From an uncultured Methanosarcinales archaeon (GTDB lineage: Archaea > Nanobdellota > Nanobdellia > Woesearchaeales > GW2011-AR9), in the NCBI GenBank assembly GCA_964527395.1, contig CAZGQD010000002.1, forward strand, positions 24,245 to 88,244: a stretch of DNA of 64,000 nucleotides. The letters run 5' to 3'. The translations under genes were made by a program, and so were the position numbers. Below, piece after piece: positions 11,365-61,193 of this stretch. The notes beneath the pieces were generated by a model, which saw only the letters and a program-made list of their open reading frames with translations, had not been told where the DNA came from and ran no database searches. Positions within the stretch are counted from its first letter, which is position 1; each line of letters starts with the position of its first letter.

Positions 11365-11587
11365 AAGAAATTAGTAGCGTCTCACTACTGGCAATGGTTG
11401 CTGCTAAGCAACCTACGAACACTTCGTGTGAGTATGTTATTCAACGAATAAACCAAACAACGAGCATTTTTGTTCATGAAATGGACAAAAATATAAAGCG
11501 AAGTGGTCACGCCTGCACTACTTGGTGAAGTATGAACCAAGTAACGAGAGCTTTGCTCGAACTTAAGTCTGACACTACTAATTTCTT
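11365..11587 (+). repeat. structured palindromic element, copy A (long form)
   Basis: Closing stem AAGAAATTAGTAGCGTC / GACACTACTAATTTCTT. Core blocks are ACTACTGGCAAT, AACAACGAGCATTTT, AAAGCGAAGTGGTCACGCCTGC and TAAGTCTGAC, plus internal hairpins. It starts 21 nt after the RSH stop codon. The strand given is the orientation of the consensus, not proven transcription. Confidence 0.8.
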
Positions 11588-11607
11588 GGGCTATCAACAT
11601 AAACCAT

Positions 11608-13500
11608 TCAAGTTCCCTCAAAATATACCTTTTTAACACCTTTTACTTTAAAAATGATTCCCAGCATTCTTGCCAATTCTTCATATTCTCTCGGAATTAC
11701 CACAAAACCACACTCTGTAAGCCCAGTCCCCACTACTTTTGCTTTTGCTTCTTTCACAGTAAACTTAGCACGCACAATTGTATTAAGTAAATCAGCAAGC
11801 AGCCCACTTCTCTCTCCAGCTACAACATTCAGCTGCAAAGGTTTACTAAAAGTCTCTTTCCAAGCTACTGGAATCCATCTATCTTTCATCTTAATAGCTT
11901 GTTTACAACCCTTCTCATTATGCACAGAGATCAGACGTTTCTTAGTAGCAACTCCAACTATAGAATCTCCTGGAATTGGTCTACAACATTTAGCAAGAAC
12001 ACAATGTGCATTTTCATAATCTGCTGCATAAGCAAGAGTATCATATACATCTGACACTGTCTTTTTAAACTGTTTATAATGCATTACTGGCAAATCACGA
12101 TACTGCTTTACCCCTTTACGAATCTTTTGCTTTGCCCGCGATGATTTCACAATTTTCAGCCAACTCAATCGAGGCTTTTGATTCTTAGATGTAACAACTT
12201 CAACTACATCTCCTTGAGACAATGAACTTCGCAGTGGCACAAACTTCCCATTTACTCTAGCTCCAACTGCTCTATTCCCTACCTGTTCATGTACAGAATA
12301 AGCAAAATCAAGTACACCTGATCCAACGGCTAGATACCGAACATCTCCTTTTGGTGTATACACATAAAATTCATCAGTAAACAAATCAACCTTAACATTT
12401 TCTAAAAACTCCTTACTACTGGCATCCTTTTGCAAATCAAGTACACCTTTTAACCAACCCATTCGCTTTTCAAATTTGATATCACTTTTGACACCTTTAT
12501 ATCTCCAGTGCGCAGCCAAACCTTCTTCAGCAAACTCATCCATTACTTCCGTACGTATTTGCACTTCAACAGGCTTCCCAGCAAGCAAAATCACTGTATG
12601 TATCGACTGGTATCCATTAGGTTTAGGGTTAGTGATATAATCCTTTAATCGACCAGAAACAGAATCATATTTCTCATGCAAATAACCTAGTACAACATAG
12701 CAATCATTCAAATCATTAACAATAACTCTAATCGCAAGGTGATCATATTGCTGACTCAAAGAGACCTTCTTTCCAACAGTTTTCTTATAAATAGAATACA
12801 AATGCTTAGGTCTACCTTTGATTTTCAAAATCTTCACTGGACAAGACAAAGACACTTCTTTCATCAACATATCAATAATATCTTGCCTCTCACTTTGCGA
12901 CTTTTCAACATACTTTTCTATTTGCGCATATCTCTTTGGCTGCAACACCAAAAACGCTTGATCTTCAAGTTGAACTTTAAGCTTCTCAACTCCTAAACGA
13001 TACGCTAGCGGTGCATAAACTAAAAGAACTTCTTCAGCAATCCTTTTTTGCTCATCAGCATCAAGTACATCTATATGCCTCAAATTATCCAGCTTAATAG
13101 CCAGTTTCACAAACAAAACTCTAGGATCCTTAAGTGTAGTAAGTAAAACCCGACGAAGTGCATCTGCTTGCAACTTATAGTTCTTCTTCTTAACTGACTT
13201 TATCGCATCTGACCCTTTAACCAAAGACAAAACATCTTTCCCAAACAAATCAAACACTTCACGCTCAGTACTATGCTTTAAAATACCATGCAAAAGCGTA
13301 GCCACCACCACTTCATATGATGCTCCAATAGATGCAACTGTTTCTGCAGCACGCAAATTATGATCATAATAACTATCCAAAGAAAGCCTCTTAACAGAAC
13401 CCAATACAGACTCAGAAAATTCACAAGCCTTTTTCAAAACACCTTGCTCTTTTTTAGAATACGAAGAAAACCAATCAAACCCCTTTACACTTGCCACCAT
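11608..13500 (-). CDS. long RelA/SpoT homologue, (p)ppGpp synthetase with degenerate hydrolase motif
   Basis: Synthetase blocks GRPKHLYSIYKK, DHLAIRVIV, NGYQSIHT, EVQIRT and AAHWRYKG. TGS block YVYTPKGDVRYL...GDVVEV, a CCRPIPGD zinc-finger block and a C-terminal ACT/RRM-like domain. The hydrolase HD motif reads LLHGILKHS instead of LLHDVvEDt. Confidence 0.9.
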   Translation of the reverse strand: MVASVKGFDWFSSYSKKEQGVLKKACEFSESVLGSVKRLSLDSYYDHNLRAAETVASIGASYEVVVATLLHGILKHSTEREVFDLFGKDVLSLVKGSDAIKSVKKKNYKLQADALRRVLLTTLKDPRVLFVKLAIKLDNLRHIDVLDADEQKRIAEEVLLVYAPLAYRLGVEKLKVQLEDQAFLVLQPKRYAQIEKYVEKSQSERQDIIDMLMKEVSLSCPVKILKIKGRPKHLYSIYKKTVGKKVSLSQQYDHLAIRVIVNDLNDCYVVLGYLHEKYDSVSGRLKDYITNPKPNGYQSIHTVILLAGKPVEVQIRTEVMDEFAEEGLAAHWRYKGVKSDIKFEKRMGWLKGVLDLQKDASSKEFLENVKVDLFTDEFYVYTPKGDVRYLAVGSGVLDFAYSVHEQVGNRAVGARVNGKFVPLRSSLSQGDVVEVVTSKNQKPRLSWLKIVKSSRAKQKIRKGVKQYRDLPVMHYKQFKKTVSDVYDTLAYAADYENAHCVLAKCCRPIPGDSIVGVATKKRLISVHNEKGCKQAIKMKDRWIPVAWKETFSKPLQLNVVAGERSGLLADLLNTIVRAKFTVKEAKAKVVGTGLTECGFVVIPREYEELARMLGIIFKVKGVKKVYFEGT

Positions 13501-13562
13501 AACAATAACAATATCTTAAGAGAATAAAAACTTTTGTAACCTATAATCCACATTTTTCCACT

Positions 13563-13616: not shown

Positions 13617-13756
13617 AAACTCCAAAAAACCTTCAAAATCTCTTAGTTTCCAACAAAAAATACTCTCAAAAACACTAATTCATAATTAGTAAAAAAGGCC
13701 AAAAGTACTAATTACCAATGATAACCTTTATAAAGAAAAGCCCTTTTGAGACTATT

Positions 13757-15019
13757 ATGATTCAAAAAAACATCCTAAGACAGATAGTAAATAGACAAAA
13801 AAACATCAAATATCCTATTTCAAACCCTATTAAAAGAGAAATTGAAAATGAAGTACTAAAATATTTTAAAGATAATAGAATAATCATTATTACTGGCCTT
13901 AGACGTACTGGAAAATCCACTCTTTTAAGACAATTGATGCAAAAACAAGAAAATTATTGCTATTTCAACTTTGAAGAAGAAAAAATCTCAGATTTCAGAG
14001 CAGAAGATTTTGAAACTTTGAACGAAATTTTAATAGAAATCTACGGTGAATCAGACACATATTTCTTTGACGAAATCCAAAACGTTCCTAAATTTGAATT
14101 GTTTGTACGGCGCTTACAAGATCAAGGCAAAAAAATAGTCATAACTGGATCAAATGCTTCTCTTCTTAGTAAAGAATTAGGAACAAGATTAACTGGAAGA
14201 TACAAAGCCTTCGAATTATTCCCTTTTTCTTTTAAAGAATTTTTAACCTTCACAAAAAAAGACTTTCAAACAGAAGATTTATACGATACTAAAAAAATAG
14301 TCCAGCTAAAAAAATCATTCCAAAAATACCAAAAAACTGGCGGTCTACCTGGGTTTTTGCAACTAAAAGACCATGATTATGTAAAAACATTGCTTCAAAA
14401 CATTCTTTATAGAGATATAATCACCAGATACAAAATAAAAAAAGAAAAAACCATTATTGATTTAGTTATTCTTCTAACCAGCAACATATCAACATTATTT
14501 AGTTTTAATTCACTTAAAAAAACCCTTGGACTAGCTAATGCTATAACTGTAAAAGAATACATCTCATACCTATCAAACTCATACCTTTTCTTCCAATTGG
14601 AAAAACACGAATTTTCTCTAAAAAAGCAACTCATTGCTCAAAAAAAGATTTATTTAATTGATCCTATCTTTAAAATCACTTCTGGTTTTAATTTCTCAAA
14701 AAATGAAGGTAGAATTTTAGAAAACTTAGTTTTCCTACAACTTAAGAGACAAAAAAAAGAGATTTACTACCACAAAAATAAACATGAATGTGACTTTGTA
14801 ACAAAAAAAGGCTTAAAAATCACTGAAGCTATCCAAATCTGCCACATCTTAAATGAAAAAAACATGCAAAGAGAAATAAACGGTCTTTTAGAAGCTATGA
14901 AAGAACATAAACTAAAAACAGGCACCATCATAACCTTCGAACAAGAAGAAGAAATCATAAAAGAAAATAAAAAGATAAATGTTATTCCAATATACAAATA
15001 CCTCTTAAATAAAAAGTAA
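13757..15019 (+). CDS. AAA+ ATPase of the COG1373 / DUF4143 type (paralogue)
   Basis: Walker A ITGLRRTGKST, Walker B YFFDEIQ, C-terminal ECDFVT...AIQICH. The start at 13757 (MIQKNILRQIV) aligns with the paralogue's MNKEIIKQLV and lies 23-30 nt after TTTATAAA. The track ORF starts at 13718. Confidence 0.8.
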   Translation: MIQKNILRQIVNRQKNIKYPISNPIKREIENEVLKYFKDNRIIIITGLRRTGKSTLLRQLMQKQENYCYFNFEEEKISDFRAEDFETLNEILIEIYGESDTYFFDEIQNVPKFELFVRRLQDQGKKIVITGSNASLLSKELGTRLTGRYKAFELFPFSFKEFLTFTKKDFQTEDLYDTKKIVQLKKSFQKYQKTGGLPGFLQLKDHDYVKTLLQNILYRDIITRYKIKKEKTIIDLVILLTSNISTLFSFNSLKKTLGLANAITVKEYISYLSNSYLFFQLEKHEFSLKKQLIAQKKIYLIDPIFKITSGFNFSKNEGRILENLVFLQLKRQKKEIYYHKNKHECDFVTKKGLKITEAIQICHILNEKNMQREINGLLEAMKEHKLKTGTIITFEQEEEIIKENKKINVIPIYKYLLNKK

Positions 15020-15025
15020 AAATAA

Positions 15026-15256
15026 CCAAAACAACTGTATTTTCTTCAAAATCGTCCAAAACAAGCTCCTTTTCGTCTAAATCAACCAAAATAACCCTTA
15101 TTTCACCTAAATAGACATAAACAGCCTCCTTTTCGCCTGAATCAACCAAAACTAGCTCCTTTTGTTCCAAATAGACAAAAATGGCCTTCTTTTAAGCTAA
15201 AACAGCCAAAACAACCTTCTTTTCAAAAAATACGGCAAATATTGCTTTTAAAATAG
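15026..15256. repeat. tandem array, about 7.7 units of a degenerate 30-bp repeat
   Basis: Units start every 30 nt from 15026 (CCAAAACAACTGTATTTTCTTCAAAATCGT). The next four are CCAAAACAAGCTCCTTTTCGTCTAAATCAA, CCAAAATAACCCTTATTTCACCTAAATAGA, CATAAACAGCCTCCTTTTCGCCTGAATCAA and CCAAAACTAGCTCCTTTTGTTCCAAATAGA. The last ones are CAAAAATGGCCTTCTTTTAAGCTAAAACAG, CCAAAACAACCTTCTTTTCAAAAAATACGG and a partial unit. The array is contiguous, with no spacers. Confidence 0.85.
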
Positions 15257-16725: not shown

Positions 16726-17300
16726 GGTAGCACCGTAACTGTATTTCTCAAAGCTGATTCTTTTGAAACAAGCGGATTCTTCATCACCAATTCCAAAGTA
16801 TAATCTCCAATCGGAGACTCATCTCCTAAAATAAAATAATCATGAAAATGCACCGTTTCTAAGCTCTCTTCTGTTCTTGCTTCATAAAGTACATCATCAG
16901 AATCATCTACTGATAACAAAAGTGACCCATCTGGTCCATACACTTGATAGTTTTCAAGCAGTTCAATTCTCCCATTCATAGCTGAACTAACCACTTCAAA
17001 GCTAAAATGCACTTCTTCTCCTAAATAAAATACATCCCGATCAACAGTACAAACTCCATCAAGTTCTTCAAGCCCACAAAATTTAAGGTTCTGCGTAACA
17101 AGCACCCCTCCAGATGATACTGGTATAAACTCCACATTAAGTAAACTCTCAGATCCACTAGCTCCAGAATCTCCCGTAGAACCTTCAACTGCAACCATCC
17201 CTGATGATACTAAAAAGAAAACTGTAGCAGACGTAAATACCACTAACACTAGTGCCGCCAGCGACTCAATCGCCAATCCTCCTTTCTTACCCATCACCAT
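16722..17300 (-). CDS. pilin-like secreted protein (class III signal-peptide-like N-terminus)
   Basis: MVMGKKGGLAIESLAALVLVVFTSATVFFLV has a basic-Gly motif followed by a hydrophobic helix. Its stop overlaps the start of 15274..16725 by 4 nt. The track start at 17321 is a GTG; ATG codons occur at 17300 and 17294. Confidence 0.55.
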   Translation of the reverse strand: MVMGKKGGLAIESLAALVLVVFTSATVFFLVSSGMVAVEGSTGDSGASGSESLLNVEFIPVSSGGVLVTQNLKFCGLEELDGVCTVDRDVFYLGEEVHFSFEVVSSAMNGRIELLENYQVYGPDGSLLLSVDDSDDVLYEARTEESLETVHFHDYFILGDESPIGDYTLELVMKNPLVSKESALRNTVTVLP

Positions 17301-17354: not shown

Positions 17355-17488
17355 GGAAATTAGCAGCGTCCCCTACTGGCAATTAAACTAAAAACAAGAA
17401 CACAACCTCAGCATTTTTCAAGCAACGACTTGAAAAATTAAAAGCGCCAAGGTTTGTACCTGCGATAAGTCTGACCCTGCTAATTTCC
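17355..17488 (+). repeat. structured palindromic element, copy B
   Basis: Closing stem GGAAATTAGCAGCGTC / GACCCTGCTAATTTCC, CTACTGGCAAT, hairpin TTTTTCAAG-CAACGA-CTTGAAAAA, TAAGTCTGAC. It begins 57 nt after the stop of the 1948-aa gene. Confidence 0.8.
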
Positions 17489-20500: not shown

Positions 20501-23391
20501 TTTATTGGATCAAACCCAGTATGTCCTGACTTACCTGCTCCATGACCTAAAGCTGTATAACCTGGCTTTCTAGGATTCTCACAAATTTGCTGACATGTTT
20601 CTGATCTAGCTCCACAAAACCCTTCTGTTCCTGGTGCTTGATAAACTTGAATTTTATCAACAACTGTACCTGCCCCAATTGCTGTAAGACCTTTATCAAT
20701 AACTTCTAATTCATAAATTCCTTTAGCTTCATCAATTGCCTTACTATTCCTATACAAAGTAGCAGAGATTGTAGTCCCTGACTGTTTATATTCTTCTGGA
20801 ACTAAATAACAAGTATCTCCTGGAATCTCCAAATCACTAATATCTTCACTTAACGCATACCCATCTACATTATTTTTAACATACTTCTGACAATTCTCTA
20901 CTTCCTCAAGCGGAATACAAGCCCCTGTAGCCCCACACTGTTTCTGCTCTAAAATCACTGACTGAATTTCATCTTCTGTTTTAGTTTCTGTCCATCTAGC
21001 AGGCGAACTATGACAAAAGGTTCTGTCACATGTCCATCTGTAAGCTTTCTCTAGCCGACTCTCAAGCTCCCACAACCTAGCAGTGTTCGGGCAATAATCA
21101 TCAAGAATCTTACTTTGATAATCTTCTGGCAACTTATGATTAGGAGCATTAATCTCAGGATGACCAGCTTCTATCAATTTATCCCAGCTTTCAATAGTAC
21201 TCTCTAAAAACAATTGATTTTGTAAAACTCCAACTGGACAAGCATCTTCCTCTCCTCCAGCAAGCTTTTCAATAGTTCCAGCTACCCCTTCAGTCTTAGA
21301 AACAGTAAACCGAAGTATCCGAACCACAACTTTGCTACCAAAAGACAAATAACATCCAATAGAAGTCAATCGAACAGCCTTCTCTAAGTAAGGGAGTACC
21401 TTATCAATCTTCTCAATAGTCCATGTAGTTGAATCAATCACGCCTTGAAGCAATTTGTCAGCCTTCAAATCTTCAATATCAAGAGGAGCATCTACAAAAT
21501 AAGATAAATCATAACAACTTGTTTGAGTCTTTGAAGATCCTAATGCACCATTTGCATCACGTTCTTGATAATTCACAGTAACTTGTAGTGGAAAAACAAT
21601 CATTCTGTCACTATACATATTCCAATAACTCTCATCACTATCACTATAATCTTCTGTAGGCGCTAAATTCCAAGAAAGGTAATGCGAAGTCTTAGCTCCA
21701 TTTGAAGCTACTTTAGGTTCGTTAGGCAAAATCGCACATCCAACTCCAAACTCATCATCTACCATGCTTTGGGTACACGCTTTCTCAAACCTAACTGAAT
21801 TAATTTGATATGCTGCATCTGTTTCAGACCCAGTTGATAAATCACTTGTTGCACTACCTTGCCCTTGATAGTCCATTGTAAAAATAGCAGTCACTTGCTC
21901 TCTACCTTCATCAAGCAATGTCGGATCAAGCTTCAACGGCAACTGATAATTAGGATCATCTGCAATCAAAAAATCAAAATCGGTAGAATAACAACTGTTC
22001 ACAATAACTTGGTCTTTAAAATACCCTGCCTTTCCACTTGCATCTACTGCAATAATATAGATATAATATGAAAAACTTGTAGCTGACCCTGCTGAACTAA
22101 CTCCATTAATTACTTCATTTTCAAGTCCAGATGGAACTACATTAACTGCAAAATCATCTAAAGAAAAAGCTCCACCATTTTTTAAATTCACATTACTAAA
22201 CACAAACTTCCCTTCAGAATCAGCCTCAACCATATCAAAAACATCACTTTCACTAAAAGTCAACTGCTGATCATAAGTCAATGTTCTATAAACATACAAA
22301 TAAACTTCCGCGCCAGCTTCAGTCTCTCCAAATATATCTGTTTCAGCTCTGTTTTGGTAATACTCTTTTCCTTTACTAAATTCAGCAGAAACTGTCGGTT
22401 CTTTTGTATCTGATACTACTTCAGCTTCAACCTTAGAAGAAAGCCCAACTAAATCTGTAGCAACTACAACAATAGAATTCTCTCCTTCCTCAAGCGAAAC
22501 AGACTCAGAAAACCCACCAGCACTTTCCAAAGAAACAGAAATCTTCTCTTCACCATTTACAGTAACCAAAACCTCGCTAGCTTCATCTACATTTCCACTG
22601 ATATCAATAGATTTCTCAGACGTATAAGAAGAAATTGTATCAACAACTAAAGTAGGATGACTATTGTCACTAACAACTGTCACGCTATATTCTTCTAACT
22701 GATCTCCAAGGCTAGCTTCTAAGCTAACAACATTACTTTCTCCAGCAACAAGTGGTGCATTTGATATTGCAAAAAGCCCATCTGTCCCTACAACATCCTT
22801 AGCAAAATAACCACCATTTACATATAATCTTACTTCAGTTCCATACGCAGCTGACCCTGTAACTGTAATAGAATCTCCTGCGATAAGTTCATCAATTTCA
22901 TCAACTTGTAAATTTATACTAGCAGAATAATCAACTTCTTCACTACTAGTATCTTCTTCACCAGAATCAGCCTCTTCACTCTCACTTGTATCTTCAGTCT
23001 CCTCAGCAGCATCTGTTGTAAAACTATAATATGATCCAGAATTGTCATCCAAAACCTCTTCATCCCCAGCTACACTCATCACCGAATAATAATATTCAGT
23101 CCCTCCTTCCAAACCACTAATATCAAACTCATGCGAAGTCACTGCATCTGAACTAGAAACCTCTAAATCTAAATTAGTTGCATCTGTTCCATAAAACACA
23201 GTCCCTGAAGCCTCTTCATCTGTCTCCCATGAAACTGTAGCTGTAGAAGAACCAACATTGGAACTAGCAGTATCACTAATACTAAGCGCATACGTTATTG
23301 GCAGGTTTAAAAACAAAACTACTACAAACACTGCAAAAAACCTAGTCCAATTCTCCTTACTTTTTCCAAATACCATTACAATACCATTCAC
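17545..23391 (-). CDS. giant secreted Cys-rich surface protein (1948 aa) with N-terminal FN3-like and Ig-like domains
   Basis: Uninterrupted 5.8-kb ORF with signal peptide FFAVFVVVLFLNLPITYALS. FN3-like STATVSWETDEEASGTVFYGTD...YYYSV. Repeated Ig-like segments (ITVTGSAAYGTEVRLYVNG, IDISGNVDEASEVLVTVNG, FGETEAGAEVYLYVY). Then about 1400 aa rich in Cys, Gly, Asp and Tyr. Confidence 0.85.
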   Translation of the reverse strand: MNGIVMVFGKSKENWTRFFAVFVVVLFLNLPITYALSISDTASSNVGSSTATVSWETDEEASGTVFYGTDATNLDLEVSSSDAVTSHEFDISGLEGGTEYYYSVMSVAGDEEVLDDNSGSYYSFTTDAAEETEDTSESEEADSGEEDTSSEEVDYSASINLQVDEIDELIAGDSITVTGSAAYGTEVRLYVNGGYFAKDVVGTDGLFAISNAPLVAGESNVVSLEASLGDQLEEYSVTVVSDNSHPTLVVDTISSYTSEKSIDISGNVDEASEVLVTVNGEEKISVSLESAGGFSESVSLEEGENSIVVVATDLVGLSSKVEAEVVSDTKEPTVSAEFSKGKEYYQNRAETDIFGETEAGAEVYLYVYRTLTYDQQLTFSESDVFDMVEADSEGKFVFSNVNLKNGGAFSLDDFAVNVVPSGLENEVINGVSSAGSATSFSYYIYIIAVDASGKAGYFKDQVIVNSCYSTDFDFLIADDPNYQLPLKLDPTLLDEGREQVTAIFTMDYQGQGSATSDLSTGSETDAAYQINSVRFEKACTQSMVDDEFGVGCAILPNEPKVASNGAKTSHYLSWNLAPTEDYSDSDESYWNMYSDRMIVFPLQVTVNYQERDANGALGSSKTQTSCYDLSYFVDAPLDIEDLKADKLLQGVIDSTTWTIEKIDKVLPYLEKAVRLTSIGCYLSFGSKVVVRILRFTVSKTEGVAGTIEKLAGGEEDACPVGVLQNQLFLESTIESWDKLIEAGHPEINAPNHKLPEDYQSKILDDYCPNTARLWELESRLEKAYRWTCDRTFCHSSPARWTETKTEDEIQSVILEQKQCGATGACIPLEEVENCQKYVKNNVDGYALSEDISDLEIPGDTCYLVPEEYKQSGTTISATLYRNSKAIDEAKGIYELEVIDKGLTAIGAGTVVDKIQVYQAPGTEGFCGARSETCQQICENPRKPGYTALGHGAGKSGHTGFDPIKTDDAKVATCFNQTGAVTERGHVKGELVDANGQQLSGELFYAGYSSDCFIGDDLEFYQCVCEPKKGSEDKVYTVREAVRKDEESGATEEYHYRQDQVFSESNSKFGTYYSDKRYYKERDFSAAFGQDYALDMLRTAENKKVAMIDPNTQFLSAYQTMCLENIWGQFTMLRGILDGLRTCAVEAKYTEFQDMGMCKQIFSQHVCGLVYKAITFASNQCSPYGFGDFGKEGSLFDGKVADFSSSIEPGLQSTIDDMQDDYGDAVLSQYFGGGAQGIAQSICLAAFGYDFPLGLDAFAEAALTIETKSYPLVYPKERVFSNYDPQGLTAVYNYKVGAVFSAGCPIDNYKTYLKCIGPEDQGNPGVDTSCDGEGCDCLTATGNSQFENEKVYYLDGGSSVSYVNSGELVDIQMQMPQRINSHYRYDHVVLELNVDTTKADIDNCFEEGYKTSTGGKFYYPIKDNSAPGVFECSAGLSTDATYDCDIGTCYTQTDGTFSCPGLSSIFYGEEGLSYFQAPYIQCYDDKTGLWLDCETPNLFLDEDDITVRPSIYTDGAGYCMKMDVNGAGVQADDQILTIPTGAAGLMQPTISLGKVNSEMFGEYSNAIKLDSSRSHEGCEELKDVKVPSTVSRERNIEFDYQLIDDKYELTVPKDVTVLTGGYEPTDDDGGKLTKSGTSTFELSEINAVKFGYDGFEFTNVLGSAGKVGTTECEYETQRAAKSTSRDEANIGVKFSLMHKDQSDGCYNAYQTVANTGLGEVTVSESILVQKNEIDVSTGDSSSIYEYFVAKDYSRVVSEAAQLIEAYPSHLNEAVGIYYYIASLVMQSGDSDIGSSDVKSRVETMLDRFFLREDASGGKLGAFSSSVQEDGEFQKIRAYNCQFAKVIGKSDKYGEGSVNGYHCDESRSYAGSAGSSSSTGVPLTTLCGSAAGTIGLKDTVPSDFSSYSCMLIENADDESTCKSFVDYLADGYQNYETYGCGNGRELCCKS

Positions 23392-23398
23392 TCTTCAT

Positions 23399-25576
23399 CT
23401 AATCTTCCGCCACAACTTCAGGTGACCCAATTAATTCACTATAATATTCCAAATCTGATAAAAACAAATAATAATTTTCATCGCTCGGATCTAATTCTAA
23501 TACATGAAACACAACAGATCTCCCTTCTTTTGTAGAAAGTGAGCTATCAATCATCCATTTTCCATCATATCCACCCATCAAATACTCATCTGTTGTAATT
23601 ATAATATCAACTTCATACTCAAAATTAGCTTCAGAAAGTACATTTACGAATGCATCAGACAATAAACCATCTTCACTTTCTAAACTAGTATAAATGAACT
23701 TTTCTTCATGTAATGTCTCTCTGTTATCAAAAACTCCTAAGATATCAAGCTCTTCTTCACTATAAGAATCCTCAGACTCAGCATCCTCGCCACTTTCCCC
23801 CTCACTTGATTCAGTAGTTTCTCCACCAGCTACATCACTACCAACAACATCCTCAGCAAACAACTTAAGTGTTACAAGTGCAGTCTCATCTTCATCCATT
23901 TCTTCTTCAAACTCTGCAATTTCTACACAAAGTCCATTTTTGTCAGGCTCATCATCACCACGGCAAGTATCAACATCTAATCTATGCTTAATTATAGAAA
24001 TATCAGACACTGGAAAAGAATAAAGCGGCCGCAAATTCAAACTAACTTCAGTTCCTTCTACAGCTGGTACAAACTCATTAGCTGGCAAATAACCTTCTTT
24101 TTCTCCAGTTACAATCCCTCCAGCACAATACGGAAACAACTGTGTCATTCCAGCAGCGTTACCCATACCTTCAAAATCATACTCAGTCACACCTAACTCA
24201 CATGAATACTTTAAACATGTATAACTTAAATTCACATCTGATAATGGTTCAGTTGCATACACTCCTGTTCCACTATTTTCAACTAAACTGTTAGTAAACA
24301 CTGTCATCGGTACTGTATAAGAATTTTCTAAGCAAAACTCTTCTTCATAATTGCTTGTTGGCGCAAATTCTGACTCACGAGCATAAACTTGCCCACCACG
24401 GTTACCATAATTAGACAACAAATGTACAGAAACTGCATATTGTAAAGTTACTCCACTTGCATCATCAGTCACTTGAACTAAAACAGGAAAAACAGCATCA
24501 TAAGTAAACTTCCAATTTTGTATACACACAAAGTTAAGCAAATCCTGTCCACCAAGTTGGTTAGACATCATTTTATCTCCACTTCGCGGTGTAACTTGAA
24601 ATGTAAAAGGATAATTAGATTCATACCTAAAAACTACTGAAAGATCATCATCATCTACTCCATCAACTCCCCATTCGTAATGGTTTTGATAATAAGGTTC
24701 AAGGTCTCCATAAGACACAAACTGTGTCCCTTCAACCCGCAAATTTCGCATATTCACACGAAGCATTTCCTTTAGAGTATCTTCAGCAGTTGAAGCACTC
24801 CACTGCTTTTTGCTACAGCTTAGTTCAGTTCCAACAACAGGCAAATCTTCATGTTCCATAGCAATCATATCTTGCGTTAAATCTTCAAGCTTCAATTCAT
24901 CAAGTTCAGCATCAAGTATCAGTGATGCACTGTCATACATTGACTTAAATGGCACTGAACTTTCTGCAACATGCTCAATTACTTCTGCAACTGTCTCACC
25001 TGACTTATCCATAATTAACAAATTCCACCTAACATTAAATTCTGTTTTAGAATCTAAAAACTGTGTATCTGCAAAAATATCACTATTCTCTGTCAAATCA
25101 TATTCAACTGAAAATGCATCTGATTCAAACAAACAATCTCGCACATTTTCTTCAATATAAGAATCAATTTCATTTTTGATCACATCAATACTTGGCCTAT
25201 CTTCTAAATTCCCATAAGCCCAAAGTGGCACATCCATAAAATCACTAAGTGGTAAATGCCAATTGATATCCTCACTAAAACGCTCAGGAACTTCAATGTA
25301 CCCACCTTGCAAACCTGCAATGTACAAAGCCTCCTCACCAACGCCTTGGATACATGCTGTCACAAAATTCTCTACTTTACCTTTGTCTGTAGAAAAAGTC
25401 GCTTCTGCTCCAAACGAAACTACTTCTGATCGAAGTACAAGAATTAAAGCAACAGAAATAAGCAAAACAAGTCCTACAATAATAAAAATAGTAACTTGTC
25501 CTTTTTTAGAATTAGATAACAATCCAGCTAAAGCTTTAGAGCTAACTCTACCTCCATTCACCTCTGTTGTATGCAT
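23399..25576 (-). CDS. large secreted/anchored protein with pilin-like (class III signal-like) N-terminus
   Basis: From the ATG at 25576: MHTTEVNGGRVSSKALAGLLSNSKKGQVTIFIIVGLVLLISVALILVL. TTTATATA lies 25-32 nt upstream. The track's extra 56 N-terminal codons (to 25744) come from low-complexity A/C-rich DNA and overlap repeat copy C. The stop is 7 nt before the start of the 1948-aa gene. Confidence 0.7.
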   Translation of the reverse strand: MHTTEVNGGRVSSKALAGLLSNSKKGQVTIFIIVGLVLLISVALILVLRSEVVSFGAEATFSTDKGKVENFVTACIQGVGEEALYIAGLQGGYIEVPERFSEDINWHLPLSDFMDVPLWAYGNLEDRPSIDVIKNEIDSYIEENVRDCLFESDAFSVEYDLTENSDIFADTQFLDSKTEFNVRWNLLIMDKSGETVAEVIEHVAESSVPFKSMYDSASLILDAELDELKLEDLTQDMIAMEHEDLPVVGTELSCSKKQWSASTAEDTLKEMLRVNMRNLRVEGTQFVSYGDLEPYYQNHYEWGVDGVDDDDLSVVFRYESNYPFTFQVTPRSGDKMMSNQLGGQDLLNFVCIQNWKFTYDAVFPVLVQVTDDASGVTLQYAVSVHLLSNYGNRGGQVYARESEFAPTSNYEEEFCLENSYTVPMTVFTNSLVENSGTGVYATEPLSDVNLSYTCLKYSCELGVTEYDFEGMGNAAGMTQLFPYCAGGIVTGEKEGYLPANEFVPAVEGTEVSLNLRPLYSFPVSDISIIKHRLDVDTCRGDDEPDKNGLCVEIAEFEEEMDEDETALVTLKLFAEDVVGSDVAGGETTESSEGESGEDAESEDSYSEEELDILGVFDNRETLHEEKFIYTSLESEDGLLSDAFVNVLSEANFEYEVDIIITTDEYLMGGYDGKWMIDSSLSTKEGRSVVFHVLELDPSDENYYLFLSDLEYYSELIGSPEVVAED

Positions 25577-25733: not shown

Positions 25734-25852
25734 GCACTGTCCACTCACTGGCACTCCCATTCAAAACAAGACCTAAACAACGAGCATTTTTCAAGCAGCG
25801 ACTTGAAAAATTAAAAGCGAAGTGGTCACGCTTGCAGTAAGTCTGACAGTGC
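25734..25852 (+). repeat. structured palindromic element, copy C (compact form)
   Basis: Closing stem GCACTGTC / GACAGTGC, CACTCACTGGCAC, CAAGACCTAAACAACGAGCATTTT, hairpin TTTTTCAAG-CAGCGA-CTTGAAAAA, AAAGCGAAGTGGTCACGCTTGC, TAAGTCTGAC. It begins 83 nt after the stop of 25935..27116. On the - strand it is followed by T-runs (TTTTTTGTTTTTG). Confidence 0.85.
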
Positions 25853-29374: not shown

Positions 29375-29873
29375 TAAAGCTGTTTTCGATACAGGGCCAT
29401 TTATTCATCTAGATGACATAAATTCTATAAAATTATTAAGATTATTCAAACTAATTTTAACAACAAAAGAAATTCTTGAAGAATCAAGAGAGCTTAAAGA
29501 AACTATTTTATCAACAAAAAACATCAAAATAAAAAAACTAAGCTCAAAAAACAAAAATTTCAGTAAAGCCCTATGTGAAATTTACGAAATTCATTTAGGT
29601 GAAGCAACAGCAATTTCTCTTTGCAAACAAGAAAAAGTAAAACTTTTTTTCACAGATGATCTAGATGCACGTAAAACTGCAAAAAATTTAGGCCTAAAAG
29701 CTCATGGAACAATAGCAATTATACTAAAATCTTTAAAAAATAACTTAATTAATAAAAAACAAGCTTTTTCACTTGTAGAAAATCTTTACCACAATTCAAG
29801 TTTATTTTTAACTGAAAAGCTTTTCAAATTTGTTTGTGCAAGTATTGATAAATTCAAACAAAAAAACATCTAA
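29361..29873 (+). CDS. PIN-like (DUF3368-type) putative toxin
   Basis: N-terminal VFDTGPFIHL (acidic PIN motif). GEATAISLCKQEKVKLFFTDDLDARKTAKNLGLKAHGTIAIIL matches the GEAEAI...DD..AR..A..G....GT pattern. Confidence 0.65.
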   Translation: MKRISKAVFDTGPFIHLDDINSIKLLRLFKLILTTKEILEESRELKETILSTKNIKIKKLSSKNKNFSKALCEIYEIHLGEATAISLCKQEKVKLFFTDDLDARKTAKNLGLKAHGTIAIILKSLKNNLINKKQAFSLVENLYHNSSLFLTEKLFKFVCASIDKFKQKNI

Positions 29874-30528
29874 ATCCACTTCACTTCACCTTGTAAAACA
29901 ATTCCATTCAACATATTGTTCACAAGATGTTTATTTTTAACGTTTTTGATACTCTTGTATCTAAATAACTGCAATCTCCTATTAAGTTTCTTCTCAAATT
30001 TCTCCAAAAATGGAAAATCTTCAACTTTCTCTGACAAAATTGACGTCCTCCCAGTCCTAAAGGATCTCCCTTCGGTCGACTTCTTCCCTCTGGTCAGAAG
30101 CTGGGATTCCCTGTGTAGGCAGCTTTTGGCGTGATGATCCTCTAAATATTTCTTCGCTTTTTCCAAGGTAATATGGCCTACACTTCCCATCAATTTCCCT
30201 GGACTCCATAAACTTCCTTTTTTGTATATTCTTCTCAATTCTGGAAAAGCCAAAAAAAGCATTCTCGAAGTATAACCTTTCAAAAGGAAGACTCCTTTTG
30301 ATGGTGACATTGTCAAAGGAAATAATATTACAACATGTACGTGATTTACATCAACTTCACAATCATAAATTACCAAGTTGTGTTTTTTGCAACTTCGTGC
30401 AAAAAAGTTTTACAGATATCTCTCATTTTTTTCGAAAATATCTTATATCTGTACTTCGTACACCATTGTAAATGCCATTGATTCCAACCTACAGAGCGGA
30501 TATAGGCATGTTGTTTGTAAATGTTCAT
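29870..30528 (-). pseudogene. tnpA: IS200/IS605-family tnpA (Y1 HUH transposase) interrupted by a frameshift in a homopolymer
   Basis: N-terminal frame from the ATG at 30528: MNIYKQHAYIRSVGWNQWHLQWCTKYRYKIFSKKMRDICKTFLHEVAK... It stops at 30370. The second frame (the track ORF) continues KKHNLVIYDCEVDVNHVHVVI (HUH), KGYTSRMLFLAFPELR and KAKKYLEDHH (catalytic Tyr helix). The frames join if the A6 run (T6 at 30383-30388 on +) were A7. An unusual C-terminal extension of about 85 aa runs to 29870. Confidence 0.7.
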
Positions 30529-31479: not shown

Positions 31480-31609
31480 AAGAAGATTGTAGTGCCGCCC
31501 ATCGAGGCCCTAAATTACAATCCAAAAAATAAACAAACTGAAAATCCTAAGGATTTTACTGATATTAATTGTAATTTAGATCTGGGCCGTGCCGCACTAC
31601 TATTTTCTT
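31480..31609 (+). repeat. structured palindromic element, copy F (divergent, highly palindromic)
   Basis: Closing stem AAGAAGATTGTAGTGC / GCACTACTATTTTCTT resembles copy A. The 3' block TAGATCTGGGCCGTGCC resembles copy D TAGATCTGACCGCGCC. Internal inverted repeat CTAAATTACAAT / ATTGTAATTTAG and central hairpin AAAATCC-TAA-GGATTTT. It begins 17 nt after the stop of a + strand gene. Confidence 0.55.
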
Positions 31610-34791: not shown

Positions 34792-34930
34792 GGAAGAAAA
34801 GGACGCCGTCTCTTACTGGCAATTACATCCAACTCAAGACTTAAACAACGAGCATTTTCCAAGTCATGCTTGGAAAATTAAAAGCGAAGTGGTCACGCCT
34901 GCTCTAGATCTGACCGCGCCTTTTCCTTCC
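34792..34930 (+). repeat. structured palindromic element, copy D
   Basis: Closing stem GGAAGAAAAGGACGCCGTC / GACCGCGCCTTTTCCTTCC, CTTACTGGCAAT, CAAGACTTAAACAACGAGCATTTT, hairpin TTTTCCAAG-TCATG-CTTGGAAAA, AAAGCGAAGTGGTCACGCCTGC. It lies in a convergent intergenic region, 80 nt after the HAD gene stop and 63 nt after the stop of the transglutaminase-like gene. Confidence 0.85.
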
Positions 34931-54140: not shown

Positions 54141-54365
54141 TCAATCCAAAACACTATATTGTTCTATCTTTCTTACATATGGCTTCTCACCTTTCTCAAG
54201 CAAGGGATACTCTATTTCTCCTACTTGGATAAAAGTAGATCTTCTCCCTAACCTTCCATGCCCTAAATCAACTGGATAAATTACAATCTTCATTCTCCCA
54301 AAATGATCTCTCAAAAGCTGCAGTGAACTATCCATAACTGCATCCCTAATCCCTTCAAAAAGCAT
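54141..54365 (-). CDS. hypothetical protein (74 aa)
   Basis: The first base of its ATG is the innermost base of the right 98-bp inverted repeat. Confidence 0.45.
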   Translation of the reverse strand: MLFEGIRDAVMDSSLQLLRDHFGRMKIVIYPVDLGHGRLGRRSTFIQVGEIEYPLLEKGEKPYVRKIEQYSVLD

Positions 54366-54462
54366 ATATACTCATCCGTAACTATTTTCTATAACTTGGT
54401 TACGGATTCGAGACACAGTTCCGTAAGAAAAGTTCCACTTTCTACTTACGGACCAGTATATT
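54365..54462 (-). repeat. right copy of perfect 98-bp inverted repeat
   Basis: Exact reverse complement of 43959-44056. It overlaps the last 17 nt of gene 54446..54703. Confidence 0.95.
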
Positions 54463-54703
54463 CTCCTGCCACATCTTGATCTGGCACAGGATATCTTTCT
54501 TTTCCCCACAAAAAATCAGCATCTAAAGTAATAGTATAACCTCCAAATCTTTCAGTCAAATCCCCTACAATGTACCTATTGTCTCCAGTATCTACAAAAA
54601 GCTGTGTTGCCCTGCCAGTCTCACTCTCAGCCAATCGTATAGTTTCTTCCAATCTAGAAACAACAGCATCACTAAGTCCAGAACTATCTTCGCTATTCAT
54701 CAC
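54446..54703 (-). CDS. hypothetical acidic protein (85 aa)
   Basis: ATTTATATATG (- strand) lies about 27 nt upstream of the ATG. The last 5 codons and the stop are encoded by the right inverted repeat. Confidence 0.5.
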   Translation of the reverse strand: MMNSEDSSGLSDAVVSRLEETIRLAESETGRATQLFVDTGDNRYIVGDLTERFGGYTITLDADFLWGKERYPVPDQDVAGEYTGP

Positions 54704-54800
54704 AAAACCAAAAAACTAAAGAGCTCATATATAAATTAGTTAGAAAAATAGATGCTGTGTCTTTGTTCTGGCCTTTTGCGATAATTGATAAAAAGTCATT

Positions 54801-55003
54801 GGCGCGCTTGCCCCCTCACTGGCAATTACATTCATCTTGAGATCATTTCCACGAGCATTGTTGCTGACAAGCAACCTCGAAAATTTCTTGAATTTTCCGC
54901 CGTTGTGACTAAAAGGAGCAAAACTTAGTGAAGAATGAACTAAGTCCCGAAAGCAACGCTTGAAGACATAGTAAGCACAATGGAATGTACCTGCACTAAT
55001 TTC
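54801..55003 (+). repeat. structured palindromic element, copy E (long, divergent)
   Basis: CTCACTGGCAATT, ACGAGCATT, hairpins GTTGCT-GACA-AGCAAC and ACTTAGTGAAGAATGAACTAAGT (homologous to the copy A hairpins), GTACCTGC (as in copy B), and 3' ACTAATTTC. A possible outer pairing AAATTAGT (54733-54740) and GAGCTC (54721 / 55009) would extend it to 54721-55014. Confidence 0.6.
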
Positions 55004-55070: not shown

Positions 55071-55221
55071 ATGGAAAAATAAATGAAAAGGCTCTTCTCC
55101 ACGTTCATGGAAACCAAGGCTTTCCAGACGCATAATCAAAGATTCTGCATTCGTTCGTACCTCACTTAGGTCGAATGATAAAGCTCTAATGAAAAGATCT
55201 CTTTCTACGATCAACGCCCCC
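55071..55221 (-). repeat. structured palindromic element, copy R2 (inverted orientation, degenerate 5' arm)
   Basis: GGCTCTTCTCCACGTTCA, CGTACCTCACTTAGGTCG, AGCTCTAATGAAAAGATCTCTTTCTACGATCAACGCCCCC align with copy R1. It carries a 48-nt insertion, and the G-rich closing arm has decayed to A-rich sequence. Confidence 0.65.
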
Positions 55222-55258
55222 GAATAAATTTAGGACAGCGCCAGAAAAATACACTAAA

Positions 55259-57832: not shown

Positions 57833-58270
57833 ACCAACTCAAAACCTACTAAAAACACTTCTCCCACAACTATAATAAATTAAAAAAACTTGTTTCTTTC
57901 ACACCTTCATTTAAGCACAAAACCACTAATCTTTGCGTTACTAACACAAACTTTAGCTTAATCCTTGCGTTGGCAACGCAAAGTTTCAGCAAATTAAACA
58001 CCTCTAAAATACCACAAAAAACCCAACTCCCACAACATACACACTCCAACCACAATAAACAAAAACCAATTTTCTCGTCTATAAAAACAAACACAAACAA
58101 CATAACAACTCTTGCCCATAACCACAACCTTTTAATAGTAGTTATTTTTATTCATAGTTAAGTTACAACAAATTAAAGTGGGTGTGGGTAATTCCAAAAA
58201 TTTAGGCTTTTTTTCAACTTAAGCCAAAAGAGGTATTCCCTACTTCTAAACAAGAGGGGTGTTTAAGAAA

Positions 58271-59168: not shown

Positions 59169-60263
59169 ATGAAACTCAGCACAGTCCCTAAGCTTCTAAG
59201 AGTCCACCAATGGTATAAAAACCTAGTAATCTTCCTAGCATTGTTCTTCTCAAACAACCTTTTCAATATAACTGATCTAACACTAACTATTCTAGGCTTC
59301 ATTTCACTATCATTAGCAGCTTCCTCAGGCTACATCATCAACGATATTAAAGACAAAAAGCAAGATCAATTACACCCTGAAAAACGCCTAAGACCAATTG
59401 CAAACAAAGAAATCACAAGCACAGCAGCTGCCATTCTCTCAATAGCACTCCTAGCAGCATCCCTAACAATAGCCCACCAGCTTTCACCACTTTTCCTCTT
59501 AGCAATAGCAGCATACTACACTTTAACAACCCTTTACACTTTCCTCTTGAAACACATAGTTGTTGCAGACATCATTACTATCAGCACTCTTTTCGTTATC
59601 CGAGCCATGAGTGGTGCCTACATTATCAACGTCCATGTCTCCCCATGGTTAATCTTGTGCCCATTCTTCTTAGCTTTAATGCTAGCTGCCGGCAAAAGAT
59701 ACGCCGAACTAAAGCTCCTAGACTCAACAAAAACAAGATCAAACAACAAAGAAAATATCACCTCAAAATCCACCTCCAGCAATGTAGAAATCATTTCGGG
59801 GGCGCCTCTGCAGAACAAGACCACCAAATCAAGACCAAACGACCTGAGTGAACAAAGTGAGCGAACGTGGAGAAGAGCCAATTCAGCCTCGCCCCGAGTT
59901 AATGATCTCTACATTGCCAATAAAAAAAAAAACATAATAGAATCAAAAGAAACTAAGGCAGAAAAGATAAGATCCACCTTGAAAGATTACACAACTAACA
60001 ATGCTAAAACCATCATCCTAATTGCTACTATCCTTTTCATCATCTCATATAGCATCTACACCCTCCAGCACCAAAAGAACCTCTTGATCACAACCCTACC
60101 TTTCGCTCTATTTGCAACAATCCGATACTTCCTTCTAACTACTAGTACAAACATAAAAAACACCATTTTGGCAAGAAAACCTCACAAAATCATCAAAGAC
60201 AAACACTTAACAATAGATATTTTGATTTGGATAGTCTTAGCAATCACTATTCTTTACTTTTGA
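59169..60263 (+). CDS. UbiA-family prenyl/phosphoribosyl transferase (decaprenyl-phosphate phosphoribosyltransferase-like) with a long inserted loop
   Basis: VHQWYKNLVIFLALFFS, YIINDIKDKKQDQLHPEKRLRPIA (NDxxDxxxD) and AGKRYAEL...IRSTLKDYT. About 75 extra hydrophilic residues lie between AEL and IRSTL, and they include repeat copy R3. Confidence 0.8.
   Translation: MKLSTVPKLLRVHQWYKNLVIFLALFFSNNLFNITDLTLTILGFISLSLAASSGYIINDIKDKKQDQLHPEKRLRPIANKEITSTAAAILSIALLAASLTIAHQLSPLFLLAIAAYYTLTTLYTFLLKHIVVADIITISTLFVIRAMSGAYIINVHVSPWLILCPFFLALMLAAGKRYAELKLLDSTKTRSNNKENITSKSTSSNVEIISGAPLQNKTTKSRPNDLSEQSERTWRRANSASPRVNDLYIANKKKNIIESKETKAEKIRSTLKDYTTNNAKTIILIATILFIISYSIYTLQHQKNLLITTLPFALFATIRYFLLTTSTNIKNTILARKPHKIIKDKHLTIDILIWIVLAITILYF
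59796..59898 (+). repeat. structured palindromic element, copy R3, inserted in frame inside the UbiA-family CDS
   Basis: Its reverse complement CTCGGGGCGAGGCTGAATTGGCTCTTCTCCACGTTCGCTC...TCAGGTCGTTTGG...TTCTGCAGAGGCGCCCCCGA matches copy R1 with 2 mismatches over the first about 37 nt. Closing stem TCGGGGGCG / CGCCCCGA. Confidence 0.8.
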
Positions 60264-60973
60264 TCAAAAGGACTTACAACAATGTCACTTCCTCCTACAA
60301 GGTAAGGTCCTCCAGAAGACTTTTTCTCTCCAGAACCTAAAGACCCACTTGCTTCAGGTGGAACTCCAATTCCTACAAGATATTCATCTGTAGCTGCTGC
60401 CAACTCTTCTAACTCTCCTAACTTAGTATTTGCTATATCATTAGAGATCATACCTTTTATAGAAACATAAGGTATAACTACACCTGAAATTGGCATTGCC
60501 ACTCTAAAAGCCATATTTAACTCTGGAACATTATAAGATACAACTGCTCCAAAAATCCCTAAAGAAATAGCAGTCAAAGAAGCAAGAAAAGTAGCGTTTT
60601 TAAAATCATTTTTCCAACCAACTATTGTAAATCTCTCAGGATCAAGATAAGCAACACCTACTTGATTCATAGATTCAACAGTACTTCTAACTTTCATATC
60701 AAAAACTGGATCTGGTCCTGGTGCAAAAGCCCTACCAAAAAAAGTATCATATTTAGCTAAAATTGAAGCAACCCTATCTGTATAACTATCATTTCCAGCA
60801 GCTACAGCTCCTGCAATAGGATTTGAATCATAAAAAGCAAGTATCCCTTCATCTCTACTACCCACAACACCAGGTAACCTCCTAAAACCTTCATTAAAAG
60901 ACGCTTCAGAAAGCGCAATGTAATCCAATTTGCCTTTCAAAGTATCAAGTACCTTAGCTTCTTCATATTCCAT
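60254..60973 (-). CDS. hypothetical membrane-associated protein
   Basis: ORF with central hydrophobic segments (FLASLTAISLGIFGAVVSY, AMPISGVVIPYV). The likely start is MEYEEAKV at 60973. Confidence 0.55.
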   Translation of the reverse strand: MEYEEAKVLDTLKGKLDYIALSEASFNEGFRRLPGVVGSRDEGILAFYDSNPIAGAVAAGNDSYTDRVASILAKYDTFFGRAFAPGPDPVFDMKVRSTVESMNQVGVAYLDPERFTIVGWKNDFKNATFLASLTAISLGIFGAVVSYNVPELNMAFRVAMPISGVVIPYVSIKGMISNDIANTKLGELEELAAATDEYLVGIGVPPEASGSLGSGEKKSSGGPYLVGGSDIVVSPFDQK

Positions 60974-61047
60974 AAAAACAACTAACACAAAATATCTATT
61001 TAACTATTTCTATCTTAAAAACTACAAATTACTCATCCTTTCAGACA

Positions 61048-61193
61048 CTGTAGAAGATCTCGCTTCGCTCGATGGGGGCGAGGCTGAATAGGCTCTTCTC
61101 CACGTTCACTCGTACCTCGTTCAGGTCGTTTGCTGTAGCTCTAACGAAAATGCTCTCTTTCTGCAATAGACGCCCCCCATACATCTTCTACAG
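61048..61193 (-). repeat. structured palindromic element, copy R1 (inverted orientation)
   Basis: Core closing stem ATGGGGGCG (61072) / CGCCCCCAT (61172-61180), plus an outer 11-bp stem CTGTAGAAGAT (61048) / ATCTTCTACAG (61183). The internal blocks are shared with R2 and R3. It lies between divergent genes, about 50 nt upstream of pheS. Confidence 0.8.

Follow-up and report, generated by a model that had tools for sequence, protein, structure and literature searches.

The 64,000 nucleotides of archaeal DNA analysed here (the window) carry nine hairpin-forming stretches, which lie at or near the positions given in a sequence-only reading of the same DNA; the stems and blocks quoted there read as given. 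The window and its flanks (80 kb together) hold six copies of one family, termed core type, five copies of a second, termed R type, a separate hairpin designated F and, in addition, a 98-nt element that is present twice. The very high density remarked on in the earlier reading is thus real. The core-type family consists of A, B, C, D, the divergent copy E and copy G, which is located just upstream of the window. The R-type family consists of R1, R2 and R3 in the window plus R4 and R5 in the flanks. The elements are 119–273 nt in size, have inverted repeats at their ends in both families and are located mostly 14–85 nt 3' of stop codons. No reading frame is conserved across the copies in any of the six frames, which ruled out the elements as small-protein genes.

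The core-type copies in the window are all assigned to the minus strand. Copy A (11365..11587; nhmmer E = 1.5e-28) begins 20 nt past the stop codon of a RelA/SpoT-like gene and ends 11 nt before the start codon of a Nudix gene. Its closing stem measures 17 bp, and it carries two hairpin modules in addition. Copies B (17355..17488; CM 140 bits; folding z = -5.4), C (25734..25852; CM 116 bits; folding z = -3.2) and D (34792..34930; CM 144 bits; folding z = -3.5) are also of this type; C has a short closing stem and D sits between convergent genes. Copy E is divergent and enlarged, and extends from 54733 to 55003 rather than from 54801 as first placed. It has the AUUGCCAGU and AUGCUCG blocks in common with A, together with an accessory hairpin whose proposed covariation between the two copies was confirmed. 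The hairpin modules occupy different positions in A and E. A repeat search identified long conserved blocks common to A, B, C and D. The covariance model (CM) built from B, C and D scored 116–144 bits on these three copies and 32 bits on the core of A, while E was recovered by the DNA profile (nhmmer E = 4.9e-6).

Among the R-type copies, R1 (61048..61193, minus strand; nhmmer E = 1.4e-36) occupies a divergent intergenic region and is bounded by the terminal inverted repeat CTGTAGAAGAT / ATCTTCTACAG. Further terminal inverted repeats of this type read CGTAGAAGTC/GACTTCTACG and GCAATGTAGAAATCATT/AATGATCTCTACATTGC. One end of R2 (55071..55244, minus strand; nhmmer E = 9e-29) is degenerate, and this copy carries an extra two-hairpin module found also in R5 at another position. 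R3 with its outer inverted repeat (59780..59916, plus strand) is located inside a UbiA-family gene.

All nine stretches had been described as a single family in which R1–R3 formed a subtype of A–D. The relationship within A–E and that within R1–R3 were upheld; the link between them was not. The nhmmer profiles of the two types showed no cross-match at E <= 10, and the highest z score of the pairwise local alignments between them was 3.3 in 50 tests. F (31480..31609, no strand assigned) is a separate imperfect hairpin of 130 nt with a folding z of -5.6. It resembles A in the closing stem alone (CM E = 0.27; no nhmmer match) and lies outside both families. The "nine-copy element" is therefore two unrelated families plus one stray hairpin. 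One might go further and regard all of the hairpins as unrelated local features, terminator-like for example, with chance similarities, given that neither F nor the link between R type and core type has statistical support. This is extremely improbable, and it is refuted for A–E and R1–R5 by the within-family matches (CM E values of 1e-27 to 1e-34; nhmmer E values of 1e-25 to 1e-36).

At least two of the R-type copies are insertions into genes. The insertion that holds R3 (59724..59951, plus strand) is 228 nt long and adds 76 codons in frame, in a loop of the protein, to the UbiA gene at 59169–60263. The encoded protein has 364 aa, compared with 265–315 aa in its 120 best homologues, and alignment showed a single 76-aa block that is unique to this UbiA-family protein and missing from all of the homologues. 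No second occurrence of the R3 peptide was found among 1.84 billion representative proteins, and a protein word search with it returned zero candidates. A bulge-helix-bulge intron was also considered. The stems form no 3-4-3 motif, and an open frame runs through the insert, which base composition would give by chance in 0.7% of cases; on these grounds translation of the insert is favoured over splicing.

At the 3' end of scpA, the last codons are replaced by R4, an insertion of 134 nt. Comparison with the empty site revealed an ACGAA direct repeat on both sides. The ScpA of a Tara relative (88–91% identical) ends ...RRQRRFKKKQVAES, equal to the product of the local sequence with R4 removed, and R4 is absent from two orthologous scpA loci (L185 and L186). 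The search of orthologous loci for occupied and empty sites that had been suggested earlier thus yielded an empty site in a close relative together with a flanking direct repeat. At copies other than R4, flanking direct repeats were not evident. Movement of such elements is also recorded by the 98-nt element, of which the two copies are identical, with two hairpins and inserted without target duplication. Excision of exactly 98 nt restores an ORF of 154 aa, a sign of recent movement of small hairpin elements in this genome. The core-type and R-type families are read as small non-coding hairpin-forming repeats that have entered the spaces between genes, and some genes themselves, in one marine DPANN (Woesearchaeota-like) archaeon.

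The syntenic 21-kb locus L186 (ScpA 73% identical) contains no copy of either family, and neither family is present in about 40 kb from more distant relatives. Two relatives lack the core type upstream of scpA; this evidence of absence comes from orthologous intergenic regions that are themselves rearranged, a nucleotide-level empty site being available only for one R-type copy. In a strain 98.97% identical to this one (L179), C, F and the transposase gene were free of differences, the 118 that exist all falling in a surface-protein gene. The population is represented in the samples JGI 3300007512, 3300007754 and 3300008954, ENA ERZ23498905 and Logan SRR8062322/3. Larger collections were also searched. 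Scanning genome contigs with an AT-rich two-block pattern gave at least 114 chance matches and zero family members, scanning metagenome contigs with GAGCATT...GCGAAGTGGTCAC gave 46 chance matches including bacterial 5S rRNA genes, and two viral-contig scans gave chance matches only. As the two big collection scans returned only chance matches, the distribution outside this population is poorly sampled.

The sole transposase gene in the 80 kb encodes an IS200/IS605-type Y1 (HUH) transposase (29870..30527, minus strand) and is frameshifted in an A-run near 30376. Its protein matches ISDra2 and ISHp608, both IS200/IS605 transposases, over the full length, and no RAYT structure was matched at E <= 0.01. 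No tnpB gene was found in the 80 kb. The nearest element to the Y1 gene is F, 1.1 kb away, with no repeat within 1 kb, and the gene flanks showed no similarity to the ends of either family. An autonomous element with matching ends was not found within the 80 kb either, which, with the unrelated ends and the frameshift of the Y1 gene, counts against a MITE origin. The Y1 protein is a candidate trans-acting enzyme for the elements.

The presence of a Y1 HUH gene within the window suggests comparison with a REP/REPIN-RAYT-like system, in which REP doublets tagged by GTAG / CGTC at their ends are associated with a single domesticated Y1 transposase. GTAG and CGTC do occur at stem ends here, with ATTAGTAGCGTC in A and GTAGAA in R1, R3 and R4, and GTAG/CGTC-tagged REPs as well as REPs inside genes are on record (PMC3733652). 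Nevertheless, the units are composite, modular structures of 120–270 nt rather than palindromes of 20–40 nt or doublets, and the direct repeat flanking R4 is not of a kind left by an IS200/IS605-type Y1 transposase. The Y1 protein itself is of the IS200/IS605 rather than the RAYT kind, and its gene is broken and has no flanking repeats. Assignment of the elements to such a system is consequently improbable.

Compensatory stem changes, as claimed in the sequence-only reading, were borne out for the core type. Its closing stems are 8–19 bp long and differ in sequence between copies while pairing is kept; such variation is unusual for terminal repeats bound by a transposase and counts against a MITE reading. 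In an alignment of only five sequences, fitted to the model, 94.4% of cells were paired compared with 84.6% in shuffles, and 13 of 42 pairs had changed on both sides, compared with 0–2 in slid controls; none of 500 shuffles reached as many. The middle region showed 80% pairwise identity, compared with 67–68% for the stems, and conservation extends to unpaired blocks such as AUUGCCAGU, GUCAGAC and GCAGGCGUGACCACUUCGC. Each of the six core-type copies is oriented like its neighbouring genes. In the earlier reading, orientation with respect to the upstream gene was described as variable; this depended on F and does not hold for this family. Co-orientation and the more conserved middle would also fit an RNA function, and to that extent weigh against MITEs.

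These properties raise the possibility that the core-type copies (A–E and G) function as structured RNAs or as modules of RNAs, which would have spread through the genome by duplication and been retained by the host. As candidate roles, they would stabilise a transcript or signal its processing from within the 3' UTR, mark the end of a transcript, or bring a TATA-like box (CTTTATATTTT / CTTTTAATTTTT) to the downstream gene; the short distance between A and the Nudix start codon speaks for an RNA role. In addition, the minus-strand folds of B–E are more stable by 7–17 kcal/mol. A related proposal is that the core type has a role beyond that of selfish DNA, as a modular structured RNA, mobile now or once, that is used in the sense orientation by the host or by a partner enzyme; it might signal the end or the processing of transcripts, supply the downstream gene with a portable promoter and leader, or serve an enzyme encoded elsewhere as guide or scaffold RNA. 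The uniform orientation, the centre being more conserved than the stems, and the covarying stems are the reasons why a sense-orientation RNA would fit.

Nevertheless, several observations are at odds with a functional RNA family. Searches of Rfam 15 with the whole window and with single copies, at the gathering threshold and at E <= 10, gave no match, in agreement with the earlier remark that the element was not recognised as any known RNA family. The neighbouring genes have no function in common, and the element is missing upstream of scpA in the two relatives. The modules found at differing positions in A and E look like nested mobile pieces, and co-orientation at n = 6 has a two-sided chance of about 0.03. 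Moreover, the folding advantage is not peculiar to the core type: whichever way an R-type copy points, its fold on the minus genome strand is at least as good as that on the plus strand. This edge is attributed to the strand being G+T-rich rather than to its being the RNA strand, and the excess of G·U pairs tracks the genome strand, not the orientation of the element, so that it provides no RNA-strand signal. A functional structured RNA kept by the host is therefore unlikely, and the same judgement applies to a mobile RNA used in sense. Of the two possibilities left side by side in the sequence-only reading, REP/MITE-like DNA or an ncRNA family, the first was retained; the second found no Rfam match, no conservation at orthologous sites and a folding bias that follows the genome strand.

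The elements are best explained as two families of non-autonomous MITE/REP-like mobile DNA, specific to a Woesearchaeota-like lineage, to which we assign a probability of roughly 0.7. The in-frame insertion of R3, the empty site of R4, the absence of the families in relatives, the lack of an RNA-strand signal and the negative Rfam searches together lead to this verdict of inserted DNA. The kind is already familiar, namely selfish MITE/REP-like DNA; this is not a new RNA gene family, and no new mechanism is shown. In such a scheme, the mobilising enzyme would require the hairpin, in the core type as closing and apical stems and in the R type as terminal inverted repeats. Active 'master' lineages may therefore have been under selection for pairing as their sequence changed, and this would have left the compensatory differences between dispersed copies that are now about 80% identical. 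A transposase gene located elsewhere in the genome could supply the mobilising enzyme. An IS200-type Y1 transposase acts on single-stranded hairpins and would be a candidate for the core type, while the short repeat flanking R4 would be a better fit to a cut-and-paste DDE enzyme. Once inserted, copies would become part of transcripts, either as hairpins of the 3' or 5' UTR or as sequence for extra peptide, and any effects on mRNA ends or neighbouring promoters would probably be secondary.

Known mobile repeats share many of these features. Prokaryotic MITEs, such as Correia/NEMIS of Neisseria, Nezha of cyanobacteria and SM1-4 of Sulfolobus, are likewise small multicopy elements without coding capacity that end in inverted repeats and can form long hairpins. 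Most lie between genes, and relatives differ in whether they have a copy at a site; in the present case a short flanking direct repeat is seen at one copy. Here, however, the 80 kb yielded no parent IS that shares the ends, flanking repeats occur at one copy only, and the core-type closing stems vary in sequence with pairing kept. PATEs, which are haloarchaeal MITEs derived from IS200/IS605, share an archaeal host, non-autonomy and a richness in hairpins with the present elements, and theirs is the type that the 98-nt element fits best; the core-type and R-type ends, however, are unlike those of the local IS200-like copy, R4 has a flanking repeat, and tnpB is missing from the 80 kb. REP/REPIN-RAYT systems resemble the present elements in having hairpin repeats just past stop codons, compensatory stem changes, GTAG/CGTC-like motifs at stem ends and a Y1 HUH gene nearby, but the Y1 here is an IS200-type gene, frameshifted and not flanked by repeats, and the elements are much longer and modular. 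To our knowledge, REP/RAYT systems have so far been described in bacteria.

With regard to insertion into genes, there is a likeness to the Rickettsia palindromic elements (RPEs), which are palindromic, occur in a small AT-rich genome and can insert in frame into genes to be translated as an extra loop. R3 behaves in this way in UbiA, and R4 gives ScpA a new C-terminus. RPEs differ in that there is no sequence relation, the host here is archaeal and most copies here are intergenic. The GC clusters of yeast mitochondrial DNA are relatively GC-rich palindromic mobile clusters in an AT-rich genome, located between genes and in frame within genes. They belong to another domain of life and are much shorter, and the likeness is one of behaviour only.

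For genome annotation, the elements are a source of error, as gene callers put spurious small ORFs on them and covariation scans will flag them as candidate RNAs. At least three or four families contribute to the density, which amounts to about 150 small hairpin repeats per Mb in a tiny streamlined DPANN genome; a Woesearchaea genome with 105 MITEs per Mb is listed in a MITE census (PMC11602168). Some of the repeats were tolerated even inside essential-looking genes, as a 76-aa loop in a UbiA-family prenyltransferase and as a new ScpA C-terminus. They represent an archaeal counterpart of the Rickettsia palindromic elements and indicate that repeats of this sort can remodel the proteins of a reduced genome.

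The nine stretches described in the sequence-only reading were all present, with their stems as it quoted them. They had been taken as one structured family. The repeats stand, but the single family does not: because the family profiles do not cross-match and one stretch falls in neither, the set resolves into five core-type copies (A, 11365-11587; B, 17355-17488; C, 25734-25852; D, 34792-34930; E), three R-type copies (R1, 61048-61193; R2, 55071-55244; R3, 59780-59916) and an unrelated hairpin, F (31480-31609). Long blocks are common to A, B, C and D. With B, C and D as its training set, a covariance model scored D at 144, B at 140 and C at 116 bits and the core of A at 32 bits, with no other convincing match beyond these four. 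A DNA profile also picked up E (E = 5e-6), which is larger than first described (~54733-55003) and shares with A an accessory hairpin carrying a compensatory change from G-C to A-U between the two copies. R1, R2 and R3 form a clear separate family. Their placement as a subtype of the core family was not upheld, as the profiles were mutually silent at E <= 10 and pairwise alignments between the types stayed at chance level (best z 3.3 in 50 tests).

The F hairpin is significant against shuffles (z = -5.6), and its resemblance is limited to its closing stem, which is like that of A. Its arm motif CTAAATTACAA (31510-31520 and 31569-31579) recurs at 40073-40083, just past the replication factor C gene, and on a close relative's contig (L185, ~140-160), also just past a gene end; the seven occurrences in the window, against 5.6 expected, are not above chance.

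Three more copies lie on contigs of this population that reach beyond the window, L174 by 6.7 kb on the upstream side and L171 by 9 kb on the downstream side. These are G (L174:1-112), a sixth core-type copy that is oppositely oriented and truncated where the contig ends, and the R-type copies R4 (L174:1043-1172) and R5 (L171, about 17049-17240), giving only five or six copies per family. R2 and R5 share a two-hairpin module at differing positions within the element, and the position of the accessory hairpin likewise differs between A and E; small hairpin pieces seem to have been nested or shuffled. No Rfam family matched either type of repeat, nothing in the window matched Rfam at gathering scores, and pattern scans of two large sequence collections returned chance matches only.

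The minus-strand fold of the core type is an imperfect rod: besides its closing stem and apical hairpin it has three short inner helices, and its 3' internal loop (AUUGCCAGU) is conserved. In an alignment of five sequences to the model, pairing held in 94.4% of cells compared with 84.6% in shuffles, and 13 of 42 pairs had changed on both sides, a count reached in 0 of 500 shuffles; sliding the partners as a control left 0-2 such pairs. Pairing was therefore maintained while the sequence drifted, bearing out the earlier proposal for the core type. Compared pairwise, the copies are 80% identical in their middle helices but 67-68% identical in the closing and apical stems. Core-type folding is well beyond that of shuffles (z = -3.2 to -5.4). 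R-type folding is weak (z = -1.4 to -2.7), with pairing mainly in the terminal inverted repeats and GGGGCG/CGCCCC.

At 34% G+C the window is AT-rich (plus strand A 37%, C 22%, G 12%, T 28%), and its archaeal gene content includes an intein-bearing replication factor C small subunit, Pelota, an archaeal-type PheRS and a UbiA-family prenyltransferase. The closest homologues carry the names Woesearchaeota or Nanoarchaeia, and several marine metagenomes hold identical or near-identical contigs. No tRNA genes were found in the window. GC skew is -0.15 to -0.39 throughout, an extreme strand asymmetry; plus-strand genes encode proteins rich in K, N and I, minus-strand genes proteins rich in G, V, E, D and S, and most of the latter genes lack a Pfam match.

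The minus strand gives the better fold in B-E, which could suggest a minus-strand RNA. R-type copies occur in both orientations and can thus separate effects of the genome strand from those of the element strand. The minus genome strand was better folded by 8-14 kcal/mol in R3 and R4 (sense plus) and in R2 (sense minus), while R1 and R5 were neutral. The G·U excess therefore tracks the G+T-rich genome strand and not the element, and is no evidence for a transcribed strand. Such an excess would be expected if C-to-T mutation pressure acted with a strand bias on a DNA palindrome.

R4 overlaps the end of scpA. In a relative from Tara Oceans, ScpA is 88-91% identical and has the C-terminus ...RRQRRFKKKQVAES, the same as is encoded locally downstream of R4. 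The flanking DNA can be aligned between the two, and the site with R4 is longer by 134 nucleotides, with ACGAA on both sides. scpA directly adjoins the next gene in this relative and in a 73%-identical one. The comparison of orthologous loci yielded one nucleotide-level empty site, for the R type only; in the 73% relative, 21 kb of syntenic DNA contained neither family and no comparable hairpin repeats, and neither family occurred in ~40 kb of more distant relatives. On this evidence, and on that from R3 below, the elements are lineage-specific insertions, not conserved RNA genes. Upstream of scpA in the close relative (L185:254-600) lies an intron-containing tRNA (tRNA-Val by ARAGORN), followed by two additional tRNA 3'-end copies (GGGCGGGCCCACCA), an arrangement that resembles the trace of an integration event at a tRNA gene; the matching region here holds G instead.

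A secondary role of the core type as RNA or promoter is unlikely, though several features favour it. All six copies are oriented as their neighbouring genes (two-sided chance ~0.03), the centre is the most conserved portion, a TATA-like run immediately precedes the apical hairpin on the sense strand, and A ends 11 nt from a start codon. Nevertheless, the neighbouring genes have no common function, and the copy upstream of scpA is absent in relatives.

The insertion reading extends to R3, which lies within the UbiA-family gene. The protein has 364 aa compared with 265-315 aa in its best 120 homologues, and alignment revealed one 76-aa block peculiar to it between conserved same-frame sequence. 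As the 228-nt insert is free of stops in the UbiA frame (~0.7% expectation from base composition alone), it is probably translated, as are the Rickettsia palindromic elements within proteins. A search of 1.84 billion representative proteins found its peptide nowhere else.

A two-hairpin element of 98 nt (CCGTAAG...CTTACGG and ATCCGTAAC...GTTACGGAT) occurs as 100% identical inverted copies 10 kb apart, at 43959-44056 (+) and 54365-54462 (-). At the second site, ORFs 54446-54703 and 54141-54365 become one open 154-aa ORF when exactly 98 nt are excised, but not when 96, 97, 99 or 100 nt are. An HD-domain gene (43453-44049) takes its final codons and stop codon from the first copy. The element looks to have moved recently and without target duplication, which, with its two hairpins, makes it look PATE-like. 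It is a related sign of activity in this genome.

The only transposase gene in 80 kb is of the IS200/IS605 Y1 type (29870-30527, minus strand). A frameshift within an A-run near 30376 breaks the gene in two and is present in three independent assemblies. With its halves joined, the protein matches the ISDra2 and ISHp608 transposases over its full length and retains the HUH motif and catalytic tyrosine; no RAYT structures were among its matches. Upstream (region 29870-30700), a perfect 10-bp palindrome (GCTTTGCTGTTTAAACAGCAAAGC) lies within a larger hairpin, and a further hairpin spans the ribosome-binding region (CCCACAGGAGGTGGG), as in IS200. Because the hairpins flanking the gene have nothing in common with the repeat families, mobilization of the elements by this enzyme is only a possibility. 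The core type and the 98-nt element would fit its single-strand hairpin mechanism; the repeat flanking R4 fits a DDE enzyme better.

Other features were observed in this region. In a strain variant (L179; 98.97% identity across 10.4 kb), the 118 differences, including indels of 6, 27 and 3 nt, all fall inside large surface-protein genes and none in repeats or elsewhere; the surface-protein region (22300-24250) is hypervariable. About seven 30-nt tandem units (AAAT.ACC.AAAAC....CTCCTTTTC.CCT; 60-72% alike) lie between convergent genes at 15019-15228 and are not CRISPR-like. A 15-nt periodicity at 36120-36544 (minus strand) falls in a 144-aa lysine-rich ORF (36122-36556), a repetitive basic protein. 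The replication factor C small subunit (37164-40028, plus strand) has 954 aa owing to its large intein. The Lon protease just upstream of the window (L174:2083-4464) probably also bears one, given its 793 aa compared with 624 aa in the 73%-identical relative (L186) and a weak Hint match. Paralogous AAA_14/DUF4143 ATPase genes (9088-10344 and 13718-15019, plus strand; 3.4 kb apart), 75% identical over a 138-nt stretch, flank a RelA/SpoT-like gene, a Nudix gene and copy A. An intergenic imperfect palindrome (TTTGCGTTAC...TTGCGTTGGCAACGCAAAG) occupies 57928-57993, near a small ORF (57870-58127).

The repeats have GTAG and CGTC motifs at their stem ends, reminiscent of tagged REPs (PMC3733652). 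Despite these motifs, assignment to a REP/RAYT system was rejected on the criteria for that system. The elements behave as prokaryotic MITEs and REP-like repeats do, and share the in-frame habit of Rickettsia palindromic elements. A MITE census counted 105 per Mb in a Woesearchaea genome, one of the highest densities among archaea (PMC11602168). The repeats and their covariation are real, and the reading that fits best is small mobile DNA of a known kind, represented here by two new families.
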